A stretch of DNA of 35,532 nucleotides from Promethearchaeota archaeon (GCA_016839585.1 JAEOTZ010000022.1:1-35532), one strand, 5' to 3'; numbered from the stretch's first letter, positions 8,712 to 33,813 are shown. The notes: generated by a model not told the origin, from the sequence alone. Numbers and translations are program-made.

Positions 8712-9350
8712 ATGAAAATCGCAATTATCGGTACAGGAAGTTTGGGGAGTACTCTAGGGAAAATGTGGGCAGAAAAGGATCATATGATAATGTTTGGCTC
8801 TCGGGATCCTCAGAAAGCAAAAAAGTTAGCTAATTCAATTGGAAGTGGTGCAAGTGGGGGAACATATGAAGAAGCTGCTAGATTTGGTGATGTTATCGTT
8901 CTTGCCGTGCCATGGTCAGCAGCAAAAGAATCAGTCAAAACAGCAGGAGATTTAAACGGAAAGATTCTTGTAGATTCTACAACTACTGTTGCGCCCCATT
9001 TGGGAGGTACTTTAATAGAACGTACACCATCAGCAGCAGAAAAAGTTGCAAAGTGGGCAGTAGGGGCTAATGTAATAAAAGCAGTTCATACTGTTGGAGT
9101 AGAAAGTCTAAATAAATTACAATTTGGCTCCCAACAAGCAAGTATATTTATTTGTGGAGATCACTTAGGAGCAAAATCAAAAGTGAAGCAATTAGGAATT
9201 GAGCTTGGTTTTGATGTTATAGATGCGGGTCCATTAATAAATGCTAGACTCATAGAACCTCTTGCTATGCTTTGGATTGAATTAGCTTACAATCAAGGGA
9301 TGGGAACAGATATAGCATTTAAACTATTAACGCGAAGGAAAACAAAGTAA
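8712..9350 (+). CDS. npdG: NADPH-dependent F420 reductase family (F420H2:NADP+ oxidoreductase-like)
   Basis: MKIAIIGTGSLG Rossmann motif, GSRDP, VLAVPW, GKILVD, SAAE, ICGD, GF..IDAGPL..AR.IEPL. Confidence 0.8.
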   Translation: MKIAIIGTGSLGSTLGKMWAEKDHMIMFGSRDPQKAKKLANSIGSGASGGTYEEAARFGDVIVLAVPWSAAKESVKTAGDLNGKILVDSTTTVAPHLGGTLIERTPSAAEKVAKWAVGANVIKAVHTVGVESLNKLQFGSQQASIFICGDHLGAKSKVKQLGIELGFDVIDAGPLINARLIEPLAMLWIELAYNQGMGTDIAFKLLTRRKTK

Positions 9351-25403: not shown

Positions 25404-27221
25404 TCATTTAATATACGTTCCAAACCTAGAAAATTCTTTTAATTGTTTTGAATTAAATATTGGGCCGTCATTACAAACAGAAATATCATTATCTGTGCCA
25501 AGACAACATGAACCGCATAAACCAATTCCACATTTCATTCTTCTCTCTAATGATGCCTGAATCTCAACATTATAAGATTCAGCAATTTCAAATACTTGTT
25601 TCATCATAACTTCTGGACCACATGTTACAATTAAATCGATCTTTTCTTTCTTAATGATCTCTTCGATTGTATCAGTGACAAAACATTTTCTTCCTACTGA
25701 GCCATCATCAGTACTACATAAAATATTAGGAATTAGATCAATTAACCTATCAACAAAAATTAAGGAAGGTTCATCTTTCGCTCCAATTGCCACAAAAACA
25801 TTTTTCTTATTTTGTTTTAATGGTTCAATCAATGAAGTAAGAGCAGCAATTCCCATACCTCCACCAACTATAAGTATATTCGAAGCATCTTCATAATTCC
25901 AAGAATTTCCAAAAGGACCTCGAATTCCAATACTATCCCCCACCTTTAACTCAAATAATTTAGCTGTACCTTCACCAATTTTTTGTACGGTTATTTCAAT
26001 TAAGTTGCCATCAACATTAGAGATAGACATTGGCAAAAAGTCAACATCAGGTAACCAGAGAATAACAAAATTTCCTGGTTTATAAGATGTAGCAATTCTA
26101 GAATTTCTAAAATAAAAGCTCTTAATCTCAGAGGAGTGCTCTATAATTGATTCAATAGGTACAATTTCTGTTTTATTCCTAGTTAAATCTATTATCAATT
26201 CTTCGTTACCTTTTTCCAGAGGTTTTACTTCAAGAATTCCGTTGTTAACAGCAAGATCAAAAACTTCTTTTCCCCTTGGGGTTCTAATTATAACGGTTTT
26301 CCATTCACTTTCACTACCTATTTCACCTATAGAAATATCTGCAAATGAGGCAGTATAATCAGAACATGTAAAACAAACATTTCTTATAGCTTTATCATAT
26401 AAATAATTATAAGGAATTTCATAGGTTTTTGAATTTGTCCTAATTTTCAATTTGAAATTATTCCTATCAGTAAAAATCCTTTGGATTTCACTTGAATCTA
26501 TATTAATCTCCTTATAATATTCTAATAATTGTTGATTATGAAATGTTCCAAAACAGAACGTTCCAATTGCTAATGAAACCAAATCATATGCTTCATAATC
26601 AAATCTTGGATGATTTTCTAATTTTCTTAAACCTTGAATCTGACATGGAGTTCCTACAACAGCAATATCTGTAAATTCTTTATTTATCGCTTCGCCTATT
26701 AATGAAAGTATTGGATTCTGGCTTGGTTTATACCCAATTCCCTTAAATAACTCATTTTGATTCGAAGCAATAATAGGAAAAGGGTTAAAATTTTCATCCT
26801 TATCAGTAATAATTGCTGAATCTATTAGTTTATTCTCCATTGCAATCCATAATAATGCTGTTAATGGTCCAGCTTCCATAGGTATTTTCTCGCGTGCTGA
26901 ATCTGCTACTCTTGAAGAAATAATTTCAATATAGTGCCCTAAAATTTTCTCTTGTTCTTTTGCAAATACCCATTTATCTAATAATGACAATGGAATCTGA
27001 TCTACTCCAGTTTTAGGGCATATATTATAACATAGTCCAAAACCATCCCGACATGTACTTACATCTTTACAAGAACCATCTTCAACAGGTATTTCTTTTT
27101 CACTATCAAATTTTATATTACTACAAAATGCTCCACAAGCCCCACAATATAGGCATTTACCTGCTTTTATAATTTCAGAATCTAATTCCTGCCACCCTTT
27201 TTGGAATTTCTCAATGAACAT
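25404..27221 (-). CDS. Fusion: ferredoxin + FrhB/FdhB (F420-binding beta subunit) + PyrK/NfnA-like FAD/NAD(P)-[2Fe-2S] reductase
   Basis: CLYCGACGAFC and C..C....LCYNICP; FrhB motifs GPLTALL, VGTPCQIQGLRK, GTFCFGTF, CFTCSDYTASFADISIG; then PGNFV, PMSIS, GEGT, RGPFG, GGGMGIA, CGPEVMM, SLERRMKCGIGLCGSC, VCNDGPIF. Domain junction near 26170. Confidence 0.88.
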   Translation of the reverse strand: MFIEKFQKGWQELDSEIIKAGKCLYCGACGAFCSNIKFDSEKEIPVEDGSCKDVSTCRDGFGLCYNICPKTGVDQIPLSLLDKWVFAKEQEKILGHYIEIISSRVADSAREKIPMEAGPLTALLWIAMENKLIDSAIITDKDENFNPFPIIASNQNELFKGIGYKPSQNPILSLIGEAINKEFTDIAVVGTPCQIQGLRKLENHPRFDYEAYDLVSLAIGTFCFGTFHNQQLLEYYKEINIDSSEIQRIFTDRNNFKLKIRTNSKTYEIPYNYLYDKAIRNVCFTCSDYTASFADISIGEIGSESEWKTVIIRTPRGKEVFDLAVNNGILEVKPLEKGNEELIIDLTRNKTEIVPIESIIEHSSEIKSFYFRNSRIATSYKPGNFVILWLPDVDFLPMSISNVDGNLIEITVQKIGEGTAKLFELKVGDSIGIRGPFGNSWNYEDASNILIVGGGMGIAALTSLIEPLKQNKKNVFVAIGAKDEPSLIFVDRLIDLIPNILCSTDDGSVGRKCFVTDTIEEIIKKEKIDLIVTCGPEVMMKQVFEIAESYNVEIQASLERRMKCGIGLCGSCCLGTDNDISVCNDGPIFNSKQLKEFSRFGTYIK

Positions 27222-27222
27222 T

Positions 27223-27822
27223 TTAATCTTTACCCTCTTTTAATTGTTTTAAAAATTCTTGAGCTTCTTTTTTCCCCAATTCAAATGCTTCTAAATTTTT
27301 ATCTAATGTAGAACTTGGTACAAAATTTTTAATAGTTTCAATAGCAGATTCTTCAGAAATAAATCCAGAAAGGATAGTAAATGCCCCAAAAAGAATAGAA
27401 TTTCCAAAAACTATATTTCCAAAATTCTCAACCGCTAATATCTGAACTGGAATACTTAATGCTTTTTCGATCCTTCTTACTGCTCTAAATTTTTTGATTG
27501 TAGATGGATCCCATATTAAATATCCCGTATTTTCATCTTTTTTAATATCTTCTGGTTTAATGAGATTAGCTGATTCTTCAGAGAGAATTATTAGAAAATC
27601 ATATGGTTTTAAGGCTTTAGGGTAATTAATTATTTTAATTTCTTTATCTAAATCAACTACAACTTCTGCCCAACATCTTCCTCCTCGAGCTGAAGCAGAA
27701 TAAGCCTCTGTTTGAGTTGCAGCTAGATTTTCATATAATGAACTTGCAGTGATTATCATCTTACTAAGAGTAATAACACCTTGACCTCCAAATCCAGAAA
27801 TTCGTACTTCATATCGAGTCAC
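27223..27822 (-). CDS. korC: 2-oxoacid:ferredoxin oxidoreductase gamma subunit
   Basis: VRISGFGGQGV, Y.ASARGG, N.ILFGA, N.EAFELG. Confidence 0.9.
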   Translation of the reverse strand: MTRYEVRISGFGGQGVITLSKMIITASSLYENLAATQTEAYSASARGGRCWAEVVVDLDKEIKIINYPKALKPYDFLIILSEESANLIKPEDIKKDENTGYLIWDPSTIKKFRAVRRIEKALSIPVQILAVENFGNIVFGNSILFGAFTILSGFISEESAIETIKNFVPSSTLDKNLEAFELGKKEAQEFLKQLKEGKD

Positions 27823-27825
27823 TAT

Positions 27826-28743
27826 TTACTTTTCCTCCATTGCGATTTTTTGAATTTTAGCATATTCTTCAGAATATTCTGGTTTATCAGGCTCATATCT
27901 GAATTCTCCAATAATATAATTATTGAATAATTCTTCATCTGTCATGAATTTTGCTTGATTGATACGTACACTGTTCCTTTTTATCCAATCTAGCATTCTT
28001 CCTGTATTATCCATTTTTTCACCTATTATATCTAGATATTCCACTCCTAAACGATCTAAATTTTTCCTTCCAAAGTAAGTGACACACGGAGTTATTACTT
28101 CAATTACAGAAGTACCTTTATGTTTTAAGGCTTTTCTAAAATATTTCATAAGCGTTCGTGGATGTGCTACCGTTGTTCTTGCAATATATGTTGCACCAGC
28201 AGCTAAAGCTAGATTAACACCATCAATTCTGTTTTCAAACATTTTATATGGTGTAGTTGTGCTTTCTGCACCATACAAGGTTGTTGGAGCAGCTTGACCT
28301 CCAGTCATACCATAAATACTATTATTAAAAATAAATATAACACAATCAAGATTTCTACGACACATATGGATAAAATGGTTTCCACCAATTCCGAAACAAT
28401 CTCCATCACCAGAAAATATAATAGGTTTTAATTTAGGATTTGCCATTTTCATCCCTGTAGCTACTGCTGGTGCTCGACCATGAAGTGCAAAAAATTTTTG
28501 AGAAGTATGATGTACTAATGTTACTAATTGAGTATAACAACCAATTCCAATAATTAATGGGAATAATTTTGGTTCTATTTTTTCATCTTCAAATACACGA
28601 GTAAAAATATGCCCTATAATACCATAACCACATCCTGCACAAAAAAGAGAGTTATAGTTACCAAAAAGGTATCCTCCCGTGGAGAATTGGACATAAGGAT
28701 GATCAGGTTTTTCTTTTGGATATATTGGACCCATACCTGACAT
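27826..28743 (-). CDS. korB: 2-oxoacid:ferredoxin oxidoreductase beta subunit (TPP/[4Fe-4S])
   Basis: FCAGCG, GIGC, HGRA, SGDGD..GIGGNH, NNSIYGMTGGQ.APTT, PCVT. Confidence 0.92.
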   Translation of the reverse strand: MSGMGPIYPKEKPDHPYVQFSTGGYLFGNYNSLFCAGCGYGIIGHIFTRVFEDEKIEPKLFPLIIGIGCYTQLVTLVHHTSQKFFALHGRAPAVATGMKMANPKLKPIIFSGDGDCFGIGGNHFIHMCRRNLDCVIFIFNNSIYGMTGGQAAPTTLYGAESTTTPYKMFENRIDGVNLALAAGATYIARTTVAHPRTLMKYFRKALKHKGTSVIEVITPCVTYFGRKNLDRLGVEYLDIIGEKMDNTGRMLDWIKRNSVRINQAKFMTDEELFNNYIIGEFRYEPDKPEYSEEYAKIQKIAMEEK

Positions 28744-29909
28744 TATTTTGACACCTCTCTTATAACTTTCAATATATCATCTGGATGGTGTAATACACCT
28801 ACTTTGGGAATTTTTATTATTGGAGTTTCAAGTTTAGTTACTCTTTCTACTTGTTCAGCAATGAATCCTGTGTAATTTAACTCTGGCACTATAATTGCTC
28901 TAACATTTTTGACTACCTTCTTTACTTTTTCATCAGGAAATGGCCATACTGTTACTAATCTAAATATTCCAACTTTTATTCCTTCCTTCCGGGCTATATC
29001 AACTGCATGGTAACATGCTCTTACTGGTAGACCATATGCAATGATAACTATATCCACATCGTCTAATTTATATTCATCGGTGATAGAAATCTTATCAATA
29101 TTAGTTTTTATCTTTTCAATGAGTATTTCCATGAAAAGTAATGCACTAACTCCTGGAAGTCCTTCATAATTATGAGGTAGATGAAGAGTCATTAATGGAA
29201 AATAATCTGTGCCAATTATTGGAGGTTTTGGGATAATATAACCCCCAATATTATCATCCTTGTAAGAGAACTTTTTAGTATAATCTTGAGGTAATTCACG
29301 ATTAATAACTCTTGTTATTATTTCTTCTTTTGGTGGAATATAAATAGGTTCATGAAGATGTCCTAAATAGGCATCAGAGAGAATAAAAACAGGACATCGA
29401 TAAGTTTCAGCAAAATTGAAAGCTTCTATTGTTAAATCAAAGAGTTCTTGGCAGTTCATTGGTGCTAACGCAATAACTTGAAATTCCCCATGACCAGCAA
29501 AGCGTATCAATCCTAAATCGTTATGATGTGGGGCAGTTACAGGTCCATGACTACCGGGACCAATGCGCTGAACATCACATAAAACAAATGGAATTTCAAG
29601 ATTTGCTGCCATAGAAATTGTTTCAACCATCAAAGAAAGACCTGGTCCAGAAGTAGCCGTCATTGCTTTTGCTCCAACTAAAGAAGCCCCGATGACAGCG
29701 TTTATTGATCCCAATTCATCTTCCATTTGCATACAACTTCCTCCAACCTCTAACAACCGCTTGGAAAGATGTTCTATGACCTCAGTTGAAGGAGTTATAG
29801 GATAACCTCCAAAAAAACTCAGCCCAGCAGCTAATGCGCCTTCTGCCATTGCAACATTTCCCATCATTACATATTTACCTTCTGGTAAATATCTTTTATT
29901 ATTTTTCAT
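28743..29909 (-). CDS. korA: 2-oxoacid:ferredoxin oxidoreductase alpha subunit
   Basis: GN.A.AEGA, GYPITPSTE, QMEDE, TATSGPG, DVQR.GP, WPFP, PELN. ATG 29909 follows a GAGGTGA RBS (track start is GTG 29924). Confidence 0.92.
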   Translation of the reverse strand: MKNNKRYLPEGKYVMMGNVAMAEGALAAGLSFFGGYPITPSTEVIEHLSKRLLEVGGSCMQMEDELGSINAVIGASLVGAKAMTATSGPGLSLMVETISMAANLEIPFVLCDVQRIGPGSHGPVTAPHHNDLGLIRFAGHGEFQVIALAPMNCQELFDLTIEAFNFAETYRCPVFILSDAYLGHLHEPIYIPPKEEIITRVINRELPQDYTKKFSYKDDNIGGYIIPKPPIIGTDYFPLMTLHLPHNYEGLPGVSALLFMEILIEKIKTNIDKISITDEYKLDDVDIVIIAYGLPVRACYHAVDIARKEGIKVGIFRLVTVWPFPDEKVKKVVKNVRAIIVPELNYTGFIAEQVERVTKLETPIIKIPKVGVLHHPDDILKVIREVSK

Positions 29910-29928
29910 ATTTGTTTTATTCACCTCT

Positions 29929-30201
29929 TTAAGTCTTAGCTCTTTCAGCTTGAATTTCCTCTTCTTCTAAAACATAGATACACCAATCAGGGCAACAATA
30001 TTCACACCTTCTGCATCCTGTACAATACTTTGCTTTGCCTTCTTTAATTTTTGGAACGTAAGCAATCCTGTAGTTCAATTCATCGCTAAGTTCTAAAATG
30101 CCTGTAGGACATATAGCTATGCATGCTCTACAACCACCACATCTATCTTTATTTAAGAAAAGAGTGAACTTTTTCTCCTTATTCTCTATTAATTTTGGCA
30201 T
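29929..30201 (-). CDS. korD: 2-oxoacid:ferredoxin oxidoreductase delta subunit (2x[4Fe-4S])
   Basis: CGGCRACIAICP and CTGCRRCEYCCPDWCI; first gene of the operon. Confidence 0.9.
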   Translation of the reverse strand: MPKLIENKEKKFTLFLNKDRCGGCRACIAICPTGILELSDELNYRIAYVPKIKEGKAKYCTGCRRCEYCCPDWCIYVLEEEEIQAERAKT

Positions 30202-30361: not shown

Positions 30362-30753
30362 ATGTCTAATAAATCAATGGAACCTTTTGGTTTAGCTCTT
30401 AAAGATTATTTTGAAGGAAAAAGAGATGTAAAAATAATATTCCATCGAGATGATGGATTTAAGCATGATTATTTTTTGTCTCATTGTTTTAGAAGCGAAA
30501 AAGAGTTCTCCCCTCTTGAATGCCATGCATTAAAGTTATGTAATGGTAAAGTATTAGATATCGGTGCATGAGTAGGACCAGATAGCCTTGAACTTCAATC
30601 CTTAGGATTGAAAGTATTGGCAATTGATATATCCTCTCATGCCTGTGAAATTATGAAAAAGAGAGGGGTCAAAAATGTTAGGATACAGGTTGGTCCTGTG
30701 AAATACTCTATAAAGGAGAAAATGGAAAGTATTTAGCTCGAATTTCTAAATAA
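30362..30753 (+). pseudogene. Class I SAM-dependent methyltransferase pseudogene
   Basis: PFGLALKDYF...GKVLDIGA*VG (TGA 30569-30571 at the Gly of motif I). Frame continues with LELQ..GLKVLAIDIS..A.EIMKKRGV, then jumps near 30680 to a C-terminal-like GWSCEILYKGENGKYLARISK* in another frame. Confidence 0.85.
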
Positions 30754-30797: not shown

Positions 30798-32225
30798 TTA
30801 TTTTAATGCATTATTTACTATTTTATCTAATTCTTTAATAAGGGATTCATCAATAGGTTTTATAGGTACTTTCTTTTCTAATTTAGCAGCTGCTTCTCTT
30901 GCTCTTTTTCTTGCAGATTTAGATCCTAATGCTTTCCACGTATCACGAGTTGTTCTATCAATAATAGGACTTGGTAAGAAGAGTTCTTTTCTAAAATGTT
31001 TTAAAGTTGTTGGATGAGATAATAATTCTTGTGTTTCTTCATAATCTTTTATAATTTCGGCTGCAAAAGGAGAACCATAATCCTCTATACCTTGGATAAA
31101 ACGTTGTACCATTCCTACAATTTCATTATCAATTATTAATTTTTCTATACTTTGCGTAGATTCAAAATCTAACATCCCAGGACCAGAAACCATATTATTT
31201 CCAGCAAGTGCTGCTAAAAGGGCTCCCATTCCTGCTTCAAAACCTGCTTGGCTATCAGGAACTTTTGAATCACTTAAACCCATATATGCATGAGTAGGCA
31301 TATTCAAGAATTTTCCCATTTCAATATCTCCAATGTTTATCATCATCGTCTCAATTGCACCCATTGGAGTTACGCCTTGTTTCATATCAAATACAGCCGG
31401 AGAACCTCCCCATACTAAGGGTGCACCAGACTTTATTAATTGAGCAATTACAACACCAGCAAGACATTCTGTACAATGTTGTGTGATGGATCCTATTAAT
31501 GTTATGGGTGCGTTCGCACCTGCTAATGGCATCGAGACAAATTCAGATGGTATCATACTTTTAGCCGCATCAATTAAAGATTGAGTTGTAAGATCAGACC
31601 ACTTCAAAGGAGGACTTGGGCATGCATCAAAGATAGCTAGTGGTTTTTTTGCCAAATCATCTTCAGATAGTCTGCAGGCTAATAGTAGTTCCCGCATGAT
31701 TGAAAAGCTTTCTTTACGAAATGTTCCGGTTACTACCGGTTTATAACAATTAGATAAAGCTATATATAATCGATGCCAATCCTGAGCTACATTAGGAACA
31801 TCTTTATAAATTAAAGCCGTACTTTGAGCTTCAATAAATTTTAAATGCTCAACCACTTTTGAAAAGCGAACAAAATCTCTCGACAAGGCTTCTCTAATTT
31901 TTCCAGTATTCTCATCAAGAATAAATATCGCAGCAGAACCTGGATCGAAATGAACTTCATCATCCTTTAATTGAATATGCTCATTCCCTTCTCTATCGTA
32001 TAAAGTTATTTCTCTAGGTACAAAGGCTAAACATTTATCTACTAAATCATGTGGAATAAAATATCTTGAATCTTTATTATTAATTTCATGCTGGTTAAAT
32101 AACTCCTTTGCCTCTTGATTTTCAATAAATACTCCTTGAGTCTCTAATATCGATTTAGCTTCAGTAAAAATTGATTTCTTATGTTCAGTATCTAATAAAT
32201 TAATTTTTGGTCTAATAATTGGCAT
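30798..32225 (-). CDS. MttB-superfamily (trimethylamine/quaternary amine):corrinoid methyltransferase, pyrrolysine-free
   Basis: P.EITLYDR, PSPPLKW, MPLAGANAPITL.G, GAP.VWGG, DMK.G..MGAIE, DSKVPD.QAG.E, G.NMVSGPGMLD, EKLIIDNEI; no in-frame TAG. Confidence 0.92.
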   Translation of the reverse strand: MPIIRPKINLLDTEHKKSIFTEAKSILETQGVFIENQEAKELFNQHEINNKDSRYFIPHDLVDKCLAFVPREITLYDREGNEHIQLKDDEVHFDPGSAAIFILDENTGKIREALSRDFVRFSKVVEHLKFIEAQSTALIYKDVPNVAQDWHRLYIALSNCYKPVVTGTFRKESFSIMRELLLACRLSEDDLAKKPLAIFDACPSPPLKWSDLTTQSLIDAAKSMIPSEFVSMPLAGANAPITLIGSITQHCTECLAGVVIAQLIKSGAPLVWGGSPAVFDMKQGVTPMGAIETMMINIGDIEMGKFLNMPTHAYMGLSDSKVPDSQAGFEAGMGALLAALAGNNMVSGPGMLDFESTQSIEKLIIDNEIVGMVQRFIQGIEDYGSPFAAEIIKDYEETQELLSHPTTLKHFRKELFLPSPIIDRTTRDTWKALGSKSARKRAREAAAKLEKKVPIKPIDESLIKELDKIVNNALK

Positions 32226-32255
32226 TATAAAATTTTCTCCTCCTAAGTTTTAATT

Positions 32256-33134
32256 TCAAATCGAATCAATTATTTTTCGAAGTTCTTTAATTGTTTGAGG
32301 AGACGTCCCACAACATCCCCCTACTATTTTAGCACCATTCTGTATCATTTCATAAATATCTTTAGTGAATTCTACAATTGGTTGTTCATAGTATGTTCTT
32401 GCCCCTTCTATTCTTGGTTGTCCAGCATTAGGCTTTACTGAAAACGGCTTATTAGTAAGTTTAACAGCAATTTTAAATAACTCAACCATTTCTTTAGAAC
32501 CAATAGTGCAATTCGCTCCAATCACATCTACTTTTTCATTTTCTAATAATTCAATACATTTTTCCAATGAATCACCCATTATTGTAAAAAAACCTCTTTT
32601 TGTCTTTTGATATGTCATTGAAGCTATTATTGGTTTTTGAGATACACCTCTAATTGCTTTAATCGCCGTTATCATTTCTTCTATATCGGAAATTGTTTCA
32701 ATATGCCAAAGATCAACTCCCTTCTCTAATAATTTTGCTTGAGTAGAAAAACTTGAATGCCACTGTTCAAGAGTAGCACTTCCTACAGGTGGTCTAAATT
32801 CACCAGTAGGTCCAATATCTGCCACAACTAAATGATCTTTAGGGCATACTTTTCTAATATTTTCTAATGCTTTTGTAATAATATCTTCAATTTGATCTTC
32901 TAAATTATATCGCTTTAAATTCATTGGTGTTGAGCCAAAAGAATTCGTTTGGCACATATCAGAGCCTGCCTTATAATATGATTTATGAATATCAATAATC
33001 ATCTCTGGATTTTCGATGTTCATTAAATCTGGGATTTTTCCAGGCGGTAGTCCTCTTTTAATTAATTCAGTGCCCATAGCTCCGTTAAATAGAATAATCT
33101 TAGAATTATCTTCCAACCAATCATTAAATAGCAA
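32256..33134 (-). CDS. Homocysteine S-methyltransferase domain protein (stand-alone MetH Hcy-binding module)
   Basis: F(N)GAMGTEL, H..YY.AG.D...TNSFG, DIGPTG, IET, GANC, PNAG.P, GGCCGT Zn ligands. Confidence 0.92.
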   Translation of the reverse strand: MLFNDWLEDNSKIILFNGAMGTELIKRGLPPGKIPDLMNIENPEMIIDIHKSYYKAGSDMCQTNSFGSTPMNLKRYNLEDQIEDIITKALENIRKVCPKDHLVVADIGPTGEFRPPVGSATLEQWHSSFSTQAKLLEKGVDLWHIETISDIEEMITAIKAIRGVSQKPIIASMTYQKTKRGFFTIMGDSLEKCIELLENEKVDVIGANCTIGSKEMVELFKIAVKLTNKPFSVKPNAGQPRIEGARTYYEQPIVEFTKDIYEMIQNGAKIVGGCCGTSPQTIKELRKIIDSI

Positions 33135-33165
33135 TTTTATCTAACCTCTCTAAAAGCTTTGATTT

Positions 33166-33813
33166 TTATTTATTTAAAAGAGATTTAACCAATTGGATAG
33201 CTTCAATAGCATTGTCAGCAAAACCATCAGCATTACATTCTTCTACCCATGTACTTGTCACAGGAGCACCACCAAAAATTACCTTGAACTTGTCTGCTAA
33301 ATTTTTTTCTTTTAAAAGATCAATAATTTTTTTCTGACCAATCATTGTTGTTGTTAAGAGAGCTGAAACACCTATAATATCTGCATTCTTTTCAATCGCA
33401 ATATCAATAATTTTTTCAGCTGGTACATCTGCCCCTAAATCAAAAACCTCAAAACCATAAGCTCTTAACATTGTAGCAACAATAGTTTTCCCAATTGAGT
33501 GGATATCACCTTCAATCGTTGCGATTACCACAGTTCCAAGACTTATTCTTTCTGAACCTTTCTGGAGATGGGGAATAATGATGTCCATGCAATTTTGCAT
33601 AATCTGCGCTCCTTTCATTAATTCTGGTAAAAAAAATTCTCCTTCTTCCCATAACTCTCCTACTCGTCGAATCCCAGCTGCATATCCATTCTCAATAACT
33701 TCAAGTAAATCTATCTCTTCTTTAACTGCCTTTTTGGCTAGATTTATAGCCTTTTCCTCATCTAAATTAACAATAGCATTGCATATTTCTGTATAGATTT
33801 CCTCTTGGGACAT
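33166..33813 (-). CDS. Cobalamin-binding corrinoid protein (MttC/MtbC family)
   Basis: B12 cap (VGELW..GEFFLPEL), EGDIHSIGK (DxHxxG), DLGADV, SALLTTTM, GGAP. Confidence 0.95.
   Translation of the reverse strand: MSQEEIYTEICNAIVNLDEEKAINLAKKAVKEEIDLLEVIENGYAAGIRRVGELWEEGEFFLPELMKGAQIMQNCMDIIIPHLQKGSERISLGTVVIATIEGDIHSIGKTIVATMLRAYGFEVFDLGADVPAEKIIDIAIEKNADIIGVSALLTTTMIGQKKIIDLLKEKNLADKFKVIFGGAPVTSTWVEECNADGFADNAIEAIQLVKSLLNK

Follow-up and report, generated by a model that had tools for sequence, protein, structure and literature searches.

The locus analyzed here raises the question of where an archaeal 2-oxoacid:ferredoxin oxidoreductase (OFOR) delivers its electrons. In a 35,532-nt stretch of DNA from Promethearchaeota archaeon (GCA_016839585.1, JAEOTZ010000022.1; the whole stretch is called the window, and all coordinates are positions in it) the four genes of such an enzyme are followed by a fifth, which encodes a 605-amino-acid (aa) fusion of a ferredoxin domain, an FrhB fold and a PyrK fold. 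The fusion is a real, conserved and mis-annotated fifth gene of the OFOR. We favor, with a confidence somewhat above even, the reading that it is a dedicated OFOR-to-NAD+ outlet whose FrhB half would act mainly as an iron-sulfur (Fe-S) wire, as in SHI beta-gamma. The five genes lie at 25404-30201, all on the minus strand, in the order delta-alpha-beta-gamma and then fusion, with intergenic distances of 4, -1, 3 and 1 nt, which confirms the reading frames and tight spacing described in an earlier note on this DNA:

29929..30201, minus strand, OFOR delta, 90 aa, 2x[4Fe-4S] ferredoxin-like (Pfam Fer4; best NCBIfam model OorD, below cut-off)
28743..29924, minus strand, OFOR alpha, 393 aa (Pfam POR_N and PFOR_II; YPITP, QMEDE and Arg120 intact in the alignment)
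27826..28743, minus strand, OFOR beta, 305 aa (Pfam TPP_enzyme_C; thiamine pyrophosphate (TPP) motif GDGD..NN intact)
27223..27822, minus strand, OFOR gamma, 199 aa (Pfam POR)
25404..27221, minus strand, fusion gene, 605 aa, ferredoxin plus FrhB fold plus PyrK fold, last of the operon (Pfam, NCBIfam, homologues)

The eight Cys of delta are invariant in 24 aligned sequences, and the proximal-cluster ligands of beta (Cys35/38/69/220) are intact in the alignment. With catalytic and cluster motifs kept, the four intact genes read as a four-subunit 2-oxoacid oxidoreductase. As had been noted before, no pyrD, nfnB or hydrogenase gene adjoins the operon; a convergent gene terminates 43 nt downstream of the fusion gene.

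To place the fusion we surveyed 400 genomes of the phylum, 154 from the Lokiarchaeia order of the host and 246 from outside it. It was found in 86 of the 154 (families f1, f2 and f4), but neither in the 14 genomes of family f3 nor in any of the 246 from outside the order. With over 160 full-length homologues of 599-626 aa in independent assemblies, the assembly artefact that had been raised earlier as a possibility is untenable. Two full-length clusters and a few fragments span both halves among 1.84 billion representatives at 50% identity. The N-half and the C-half each group as a single clade with strong support (100/100 and 100, respectively), and the fusion therefore arose once. Gamma lies directly upstream in 45 of 46 loci, the remaining locus being without upstream DNA, and all four OFOR subunits precede the fusion in 38 of the 39 loci with at least 3 kb upstream. 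The flanks of the operon vary between genera, and the gene order persists in divergent f2-type members. Among the 154 genomes, 81 carried both the fusion and an orthologue of beta (about 60% identity or more), five the fusion only, three beta only and 65 neither; the single-gene exceptions examined were contig ends or N gaps. No p-value is given for this co-occurrence because related genomes are not independent. Gene order and co-occurrence thus uphold the link between fusion and OFOR for which a synteny survey had been proposed. Three f3 genomes have a 47-50% identical OFOR with no fifth gene.

A split ancestor was sought as well. The closest stand-alone FrhB-like genes are not next to OFORs, no FrhB-like gene occurs in 77 outside OFOR loci, and the two PyrK-like matches there proved to be ordinary NfnAB behind another gene. 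A longer form fused to gamma was not found, which is a weak negative. Two further candidates were rejected: an apparent coordinated loss of beta, gamma and fusion in genome G187 is an N scaffold gap, and a stand-alone zeta-like gene behind gamma in G130 is a fusion interrupted by an N gap. Two aberrant loci were observed, either assembly errors or decay: beta-gamma-fusion without delta and alpha upstream in G277 (L057, contig C98), and, in G226 (L043, contig C23), a fragmented gamma whose region exceeds the usual length by about 590 nt. The earlier note had not recognized the architecture as characterized, and we found no description of it in the literature searched, a coverage that leaves out most subscription papers, nor in the accessible part of the supplements of a survey of archaeal fusions (PMC11237513). 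The parts and the principle are known from zeta/FwdI, SHI beta-gamma and NAD-linked OFORs, while nothing in that literature describes the joining of this fusion with an OFOR, its confinement to a single Asgard order or the stepwise erosion of its flavin site.

Databases name the fusion 'dihydroorotate dehydrogenase electron transfer subunit' because the PyrK model alone passes its NCBIfam cut-off (PRK00054 on residues 351-603; PRK00054.1-1, 263 vs 224). The frhB, FpoF and NfnA-type models all stay below theirs, the curated frhB/FpoF scores being 156 vs 331.5 (TIGR03289) and 94 vs 475 (NF040616). The three-part architecture proposed earlier is borne out by Pfam:

Residues 118-175, FrhB_FdhB_N
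Residues 185-337, FrhB_FdhB_C
Residues 361-439, FAD_binding_6, weak, below cut-off
Residues 452-543, NAD_binding_1, weak, just under cut-off
Residues 559-594, DHODB_Fe-S_bind

On the DNA, these correspond to three modules:

26952..27221, minus strand, N-terminal 2x[4Fe-4S] ferredoxin domain, C23/C26/C29/C33/C51/C57/C64/C68 (alignable with those of ACDS zeta and Fsr)
26172..26951, minus strand, FrhB-fold core, [4Fe-4S] ligands C193/C223/C283/C286 intact, flavin/F420 site remodelled (AlphaFold2 (AF2) model, structure and motif comparison)
25404..26171, minus strand, PyrK-type FNR module (PRK00054 above cut-off; alignments to 4ylf, 5jca, 9nez_C and 1ep1)

If the database name were right, the protein would be an ordinary electron-transfer subunit of dihydroorotate dehydrogenase (DHODH) and its N-terminal domain incidental. 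Besides the PRK00054 match, the C-half nests among archaeal PyrK in the tree and its nearest stand-alone relatives adjoin pyrD. However, the genome has a separate pyrD-pyrK pair on contig C52, whose PyrK has an orthologue in 131 of the 154 genomes with or without the fusion, and the DHODH reading, which had been named earlier as an alternative, is therefore very unlikely, the least probable of those weighed here. In addition, the fusion tracks the OFOR, and pyrD is not among the neighbor families identified.

The PyrK half retains its cofactor motifs in all lineages, namely GxxT and RGPxG for FAD, GGGxG, TDDGS and CGP(E) for NAD, and Cys564/569/572/583 for the [2Fe-2S] cluster. A set of 105 PyrK sequences has 50 conserved columns, 46 of which are not lost in the fusions. 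NfnA and FlxA of the host genome fall far outside the archaeal PyrK, and the C-half reads as a true archaeal PyrK derivative. The description of this module as PyrK/NfnA-like thus holds for the PyrK type (four Cys, TDDGS) and not for NfnA, as the [2Fe-2S] motif is MKCGIGLCGSC, in contrast to MVDGTGMCGAC in NfnA, where ligation is Asp(Cys)3 (PMC8097209). Since TDDGS also occurs in NAD-specific PyrK and NfnA and is not found in the NADPH-using SHI gamma, NAD(H) is predicted for the fusion, and the NAD(P) proposed before would narrow to NAD rather than NADP.

One chain with two potential flavin sites and a ferredoxin domain could also point to a confurcating or bifurcating enzyme, or to an anabolic device driving reductive carboxylation from NADH or F420H2. 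As a donor for carboxylation by an OFOR, NADH or F420H2 is too weak by itself, which counts against the anabolic version. Neither the protein nor the operon holds a GltD-like NfnB, HdrA, EtfB or NuoF-type module or another known bifurcating module, the [2Fe-2S] cluster has Cys4 ligation instead of that of NfnA, and an adjacent pair of NfnA-type and NfnB-type genes exists elsewhere in the host genome. We regard this explanation as highly improbable; the F420H2:NAD(P) transhydrogenase or confurcating enzyme suggested in the earlier note is not supported as stated.

The N-half is well defined as a fold. Its AF2 model (pLDDT 90.9) matches ACDS zeta (8riu_B, E 8.6e-53) with TM 0.89 and Z 45.7, and FwdI and the N-half of Fsr show the same architecture. 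All 12 Fe-S Cys of this half are kept at 1.00 in every lineage (f1, f2 and f4), including the core-cluster Cys equivalent to FrhB C104/134/192/195 (100%). One surface loop is invariant and specific to the fusion:

26583..26612, minus strand, surface loop H204-P-x-F-D208-x-E210-x-x-D213 (conservation; aligned to 9tn7)

In the alignment to 9tn7 it corresponds to the Fsr loop around Glu180/181, which carries or supports the ferredoxin domains in that enzyme (PMC10229431), and it is a candidate docking surface.

The flavin/F420 site of the FrhB half gave a different picture. In FrhB, FAD is held by loops 23-30 (QDGG), 71-77 (GTKYT) and 131-138, and F420 enters via IGKGK and S209/V210 (PMC3930138, PMC3591093); the IGKGK turn, S209 and positive charge are used here as conservation markers from PMC3591093, not as proven requirements for F420. 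The comparison set consisted of 30 stand-alone FrhB relatives, which are uncharacterized and whose motifs match those of solved F420 enzymes. In the fusion, the following sites are changed:

26859..26879, minus strand, FAD pyrophosphate loop, MEAGPLT replaces QDGGIVT (alignment; role of 24QDGG from PMC3930138)
26721..26735, minus strand, FAD loop 2, GYKPS replaces GTKYT, G and K being retained and T and Y lost (HCAR and BciB have GVKP and GNKP)
26457..26471, minus strand, F420-channel turn, TDRNN replaces IGKGK (role from PMC3591093)
26322..26324, minus strand, E300 at the position of FrhB S209 in the F420 ring pocket, N/E/K/M/V in the family (alignment; PMC3591093)

Out of 52 columns conserved in the 30 relatives, the fusions lose Q24, G26, V29, Y76, L/I132 and I163, all of them in the flavin/F420 loops (6 of 14 columns vs 0 of 38 elsewhere; Fisher p = 1.5e-4). 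The motif [QT]xGG occurs in one of 137 fusions vs 30 of 30 relatives, G[TSA]x[YFWL] in one of 137 vs 29 of 30, and a small residue at S209 in 10 of 137 vs 27 of 30, while Pro at I28, the start of the phosphate-binding helix, is present in 122 of 137 fusions vs none of the 30. The mean net charge of the F420 turn is -0.43 in fusions vs +0.83 in relatives. M115, T251, N254, N255 and E300 are among the more variable f1 columns (3rd to 21st percentile). The earlier note had called the FrhB motifs complete, which applies to those of the [4Fe-4S] cluster and the fold (GTPCQ, FC.GTF, CxxC.D, ADIS.G) but not to QDGG and GTKY of the FAD site or IGKGK and S209 of the F420 site. In view of this selective divergence, its two-flavin F420/NAD(P) hub lacks support in the form proposed.

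Closer examination by lineage revealed that retention in the flavin/F420 loops is 0.51/0.62/0.31 in f1/f2/f4, as opposed to 0.94/0.89/0.68 in the other conserved columns. The gene under study belongs to f1, with EAGP and GYKP. Lineage f4 has additionally lost T30, G73, K75 and G211, and FAD loop 2 is wholly gone with the operon kept; the function shared by the lineages therefore seems independent of that flavin. The F420 turn and S209 are changed in f1, f2 and f4. As far as sequence can tell, the erosion of the FAD/F420 loops is selective and graded across the three lineages, and use of F420 by the fusion appears unlikely.

The lineages have in common the OFOR, an intact PyrK module and three [4Fe-4S] clusters; a route to NAD+ is the simplest function that all could share. 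In the NAD+ outlet that we favor, the operon would encode a catabolic 2-oxoacid:NAD+ system in which the TPP enzyme oxidizes a 2-oxoacid, probably not 2-oxoglutarate, to acyl-CoA and CO2. Electrons would enter the fusion at its ferredoxin domain, coming from the delta clusters either by direct docking or by a short ferredoxin hop, and would continue along the Fe-S wire to the [2Fe-2S] cluster, FAD and NAD+. The path might be linear, via the core cluster (and FAD where present) with PyrK placed over the former F420 cleft, or branched at the distal cluster. The FrhB half, descended in this proposal from an F420-reductase module of the ACDS-zeta/Fsr-N type, would now be mainly an Fe-S scaffold and wire. 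Its FAD has probably been retained in f2 and lost in f4, and in f1 it may survive as a relay; F420 turnover would not be a conserved function of the family. The step would be exergonic rather than bifurcating and would pull 2-oxoacid oxidation forward; between -500 and -320 mV such a step yields about -35 kJ/mol. The earlier suggestion that the fusion re-oxidizes OFOR-derived electrons is plausible in this light.

Several observations weigh against a pure NAD+ outlet. The remodelled loops of f1 are strongly constrained (Y164 96%, P166 99%, Q168 and G225 100%), f1 retains G118, T121, G163, K165, S297 and G299, and f2 keeps canonical FAD loops (QAGG..T and AGTKW). FAD-containing HCAR likewise has GVKP and QWTG, and a BciB-like protein has GxKP and QW[ST]G; given that HCAR holds FAD despite these motifs, FAD may well still bind the FrhB half of the fusion, and we put its persistence in f1 at roughly even odds. 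In FdhB, which reacts with F420, the E136 position is occupied by Gly, and single substitutions are thus compatible with F420 use. Judged from its genes (cofD, cofE, cofG and mtd), the host makes and uses F420. The 30 comparison proteins, as stated, are uncharacterized, lineage f4 is represented by four genomes only, and a full-length AlphaFold model from a shallow alignment (pLDDT 60.9, pTM 0.54) does not fix the relative position of the two halves.

Several of these points agree with the hub proposed earlier, in which the FrhB half binds FAD and F420 and either splits OFOR electrons between F420 and NAD+ or acts as an F420H2:NAD+ transhydrogenase, comparable to ACDS zeta or FwdI with an added NAD branch. 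The closest solved relatives are proven F420 reductases on oxidative decarboxylating enzymes (8riu_B; PMC11493965), the Fsr-like RxD[FY]E loop is invariant, and neither cofG nor the fusion was found in family f3. On the other hand, the IGKGK turn with its charge (+0.83 to about -0.4) and S209 are changed in every lineage, the five positions listed above (M115, T251, N254, N255, E300) are among the more variable in f1, and the host encodes seven or more further FrhB-like domains whose motifs are canonical, in addition to an Fno-like gene below cut-off. The occurrence of cofG (117 of 134 f1 genomes, 0 of 14 f3 genomes) is irrespective of the fusion, and co-occurrence with F420 is therefore uninformative. 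Fusion-bearing genomes without F420 synthesis were looked for and rejected as such: among the five without a cofG match, cofD and cofE pass the cut-off in four, and the fifth gives matches below it. Overall we consider the hub unlikely for the family as it stands, and most plausible for the ancestor and lineage f2. Similarly doubtful, and a shade more so, is a tight five-subunit complex, which would be the first OFOR with a built-in ferredoxin wire reducing both F420 and NAD+ (fully so in f2) and whose lineages would record, step by step, how an F420/NAD branch point turned into a pure NAD outlet.

A further possibility is that the FrhB half keeps its FAD and reduces another small molecule, as in HCAR/BciB, fed by the OFOR or by NADH via the PyrK half; such a molecule might be a metabolite that this OFOR produces or one that is paired with it. 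GYKP mirrors the GVKP/GNKP of HCAR and BciB, FAD users without F420, the remodelled loop is nearly invariant in f1, and the substrate site of the OFOR is unusual. However, the three pockets differ (EAGP/GYKP/CFGT; QAGG/GTKW/C[LM]G[AT]S; GGGA/variable/CFFKP), to which relaxed constraint is a better fit, and a conserved neighbor supplying a substrate is absent. We rate this as improbable. HCAR/BciB (5dqr) resemble the fusion in the FrhB fold, in the GxKP of FAD loop 2 and in the change at S209, use no F420, and differ from it in keeping Gln24, in having no Pro28, in a chlorophyll-binding extension and in lacking a PyrK half, at 18-21% identity.

The favored NAD+ outlet has parallels in known systems. 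In Ca. Ethanoperedens thermophilum, two F420 reductases encoded within operons, zeta and FwdI, take the place of ferredoxin on CODH and Fwd (PMC11493965). Like the fusion, ACDS zeta and FwdI (8riu_B, 8rja_E; 31-33% identity) combine an N-terminal 2x[4Fe-4S] domain with an FrhB fold and share an operon with an oxidative enzyme that normally depends on ferredoxin; the fusion differs in its OFOR partner, in the added PyrK module and in the alteration of zeta's QxGG, GxxY, IGxGK and S209. The N-half of group I Fsr (7np8, 7npa, 9tn7) likewise joins a ferredoxin domain and FrhB fold to a second redox module and has two motifs in common with the fusion, RxGxGxCY (ferredoxin domain) and the RxD[FY]E loop. 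In contrast to the fusion, this second module is a siroheme reductase, the FAD motifs are canonical and the enzyme oxidizes F420H2 (PMC10229431).

SHI beta-gamma, AsrA-AsrB and FlxABCD pair an FrhB/FdhB-related Fe-S subunit with a PyrK-fold subunit for FAD, NAD(P) and [2Fe-2S]. Their Fe-S subunits are not known to carry flavin. SHI beta (9nez_B) shares the core fold with the fusion (Z 11.8 vs a background near 5), SHI gamma (9nez_C) is matched with E 7e-26, and the nearest look-alikes by features are AsrA-AsrB-type fusions at 0.76, a value to be read as a lead only. Beta-gamma fusions are known (PMC11237513). The fusion differs from these modules in its independent origin, its zeta/Fsr-type N-half, its true archaeal PyrK C-half with the NAD-type TDDGS, and its partner, an OFOR instead of a hydrogenase, Asr or Hdr. 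No match to Pfam Fer4_22 was found, and the AsrB, ShyC and HydG models of NCBIfam remain below cut-off. By analogy, the fusion may work like the SHI/AsrAB/FlxABCD modules without being a member. With PyrK and NfnA (NfnS) it shares the FNR fold and C-terminal [2Fe-2S] domain, at about 40% identity to archaeal PyrK; unlike them it has no PyrD/NfnB partner, carries Cys4 where NfnA has Asp, and has a three-cluster wire attached. OFORs with a dedicated flavoprotein outlet to pyridine nucleotide exist in phenylglyoxylate:NAD+ oxidoreductase (PadEFGHI) and eukaryotic pyruvate:NADP+ oxidoreductase, the outlets of which have folds unrelated to the fusion. None of the Pad models of NCBIfam reaches its cut-off for the operon proteins.

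With regard to the substrate, the closest solved chain to beta is that of a 2-oxoglutarate OFOR (8ys5_C), and beta is at most 42% identical to the outside-group sequences retrieved. The substrate-site motif differs:

28528..28548, minus strand, beta GIGC-YTQ, Gln where KOR-type betas have Arg/Lys (alignment)

Y[STG]Q was present in 40 of 40 scored operon betas, as opposed to Arg in 59 of the 64 nearest outside betas, and solved KOR/OFOR chains have SGR, SGK or SSR at the GIGC+3 site. We take the Arg at this site to bind the distal carboxylate of the substrate; with Gln in its place, 2-oxoglutarate is an unlikely substrate. All Oor/Kor models of NCBIfam stay below cut-off as well, and the 'kor' designation used earlier is a label only, unsupported by a beta without the conserved Arg. 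LutA-like (CCG) and LutB/LldF-like genes flank the operon in 18 of 46 loci, a SAF and UxaA/GarD-like dehydratase pair lies nearby in 11 of 46, and an EamA transporter lies downstream in 32 of 46. The Lut/UxaA/EamA genes were seen at L048, L049, L052, L056, L058-L061, L066, L067, L070-L072, L076, L077 and L039-L041, and in the host genome (G000) at C47:108620-110652 and on C11. These neighbors, which are not universal, hint at 2-hydroxyacid or 2-oxoacid catabolism. The host genome encodes four further OFORs.

Metabolic models of Lokiarchaeia take OFORs as yielding reduced ferredoxin for hydrogenases or the Wood-Ljungdahl pathway, while 86 of the 154 genomes of the order appear to route OFOR electrons to pyridine nucleotide via a fused subunit. 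If true, an anaerobic 2-oxoacid dehydrogenase based on TPP and Fe-S clusters would operate in these archaea, and current accounts of their redox balance would be wrong. The family would carry the principle of an acceptor module on a ferredoxin-dependent enzyme, as in ACDS zeta and FwdI, over to OFORs. Its canonical, remodelled and degenerate flavin sites form a natural three-step series that makes the transition from F420 to wire testable, and they caution that a Pfam FrhB match alone does not imply use of F420.

The host genome contains other proteins of related make-up. On contig C59 (L078:4745-8405, minus strand), an NfnA-type gene (290 aa, Asp-ligated [2Fe-2S]) precedes a 928-aa protein in which a ferredoxin and FrhB domain is fused to a complete GltD/NfnB module. 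The FAD/F420 motifs of the latter are canonical (QDGG, GTKY, CMESF, IDKGK, S209), the protein is full length in about 55 f1 genomes, and it is a far better candidate than the 605-aa fusion for an F420/NAD(P)/ferredoxin bifurcating hub. An 823-aa protein on C37 (L087:6409-8880, minus strand) has an FrhB-like domain split by a GltD-like insert (FrhB_N 75-146, Fer4_20/Pyr_redox 197-604, FrhB_C 668-739) and lies in an Hdr/Mvh-like cluster with DsrE/TusA-like genes, the neighbors being judged by eye. On C64 (L085:6248-7189, minus strand), a 313-aa FrhB-like protein without the QDGG loop and the three-stranded lid has kept its cluster Cys and reads as a second, independent degenerate FrhB. C10 (L084:5542-9636) and C26 (L086) hold two FlxABCD-like sets (FdhB-, AsrA/HydB- and PyrK-like) beside HdrA, one of them followed by an FrhB-like gene; these sets are possible sinks for operon-derived NADH. 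The Fno/NpdG-like gene mentioned above lies within the window at 8712-9350 (plus strand; 84 bits vs a cut-off of 150).

A scan for bacterial promoters and terminators gave matches at chance level only. Upstream of the operon, a 69-aa remnant at 30362-30571 (plus strand) matches, at 64% identity, the N-terminus of a 241-aa protein that relatives carry in this position; the remnant ends directly past a VLDIGA motif and is probably a broken S-adenosylmethionine-dependent methyltransferase gene. Farther upstream, 30798-33813 (minus strand) encodes an MttB-family methyltransferase, a homocysteine S-methyltransferase domain and a corrinoid protein; this MttB-type cluster adjoins the operon in loci of genus g1 only and is probably not part of it.

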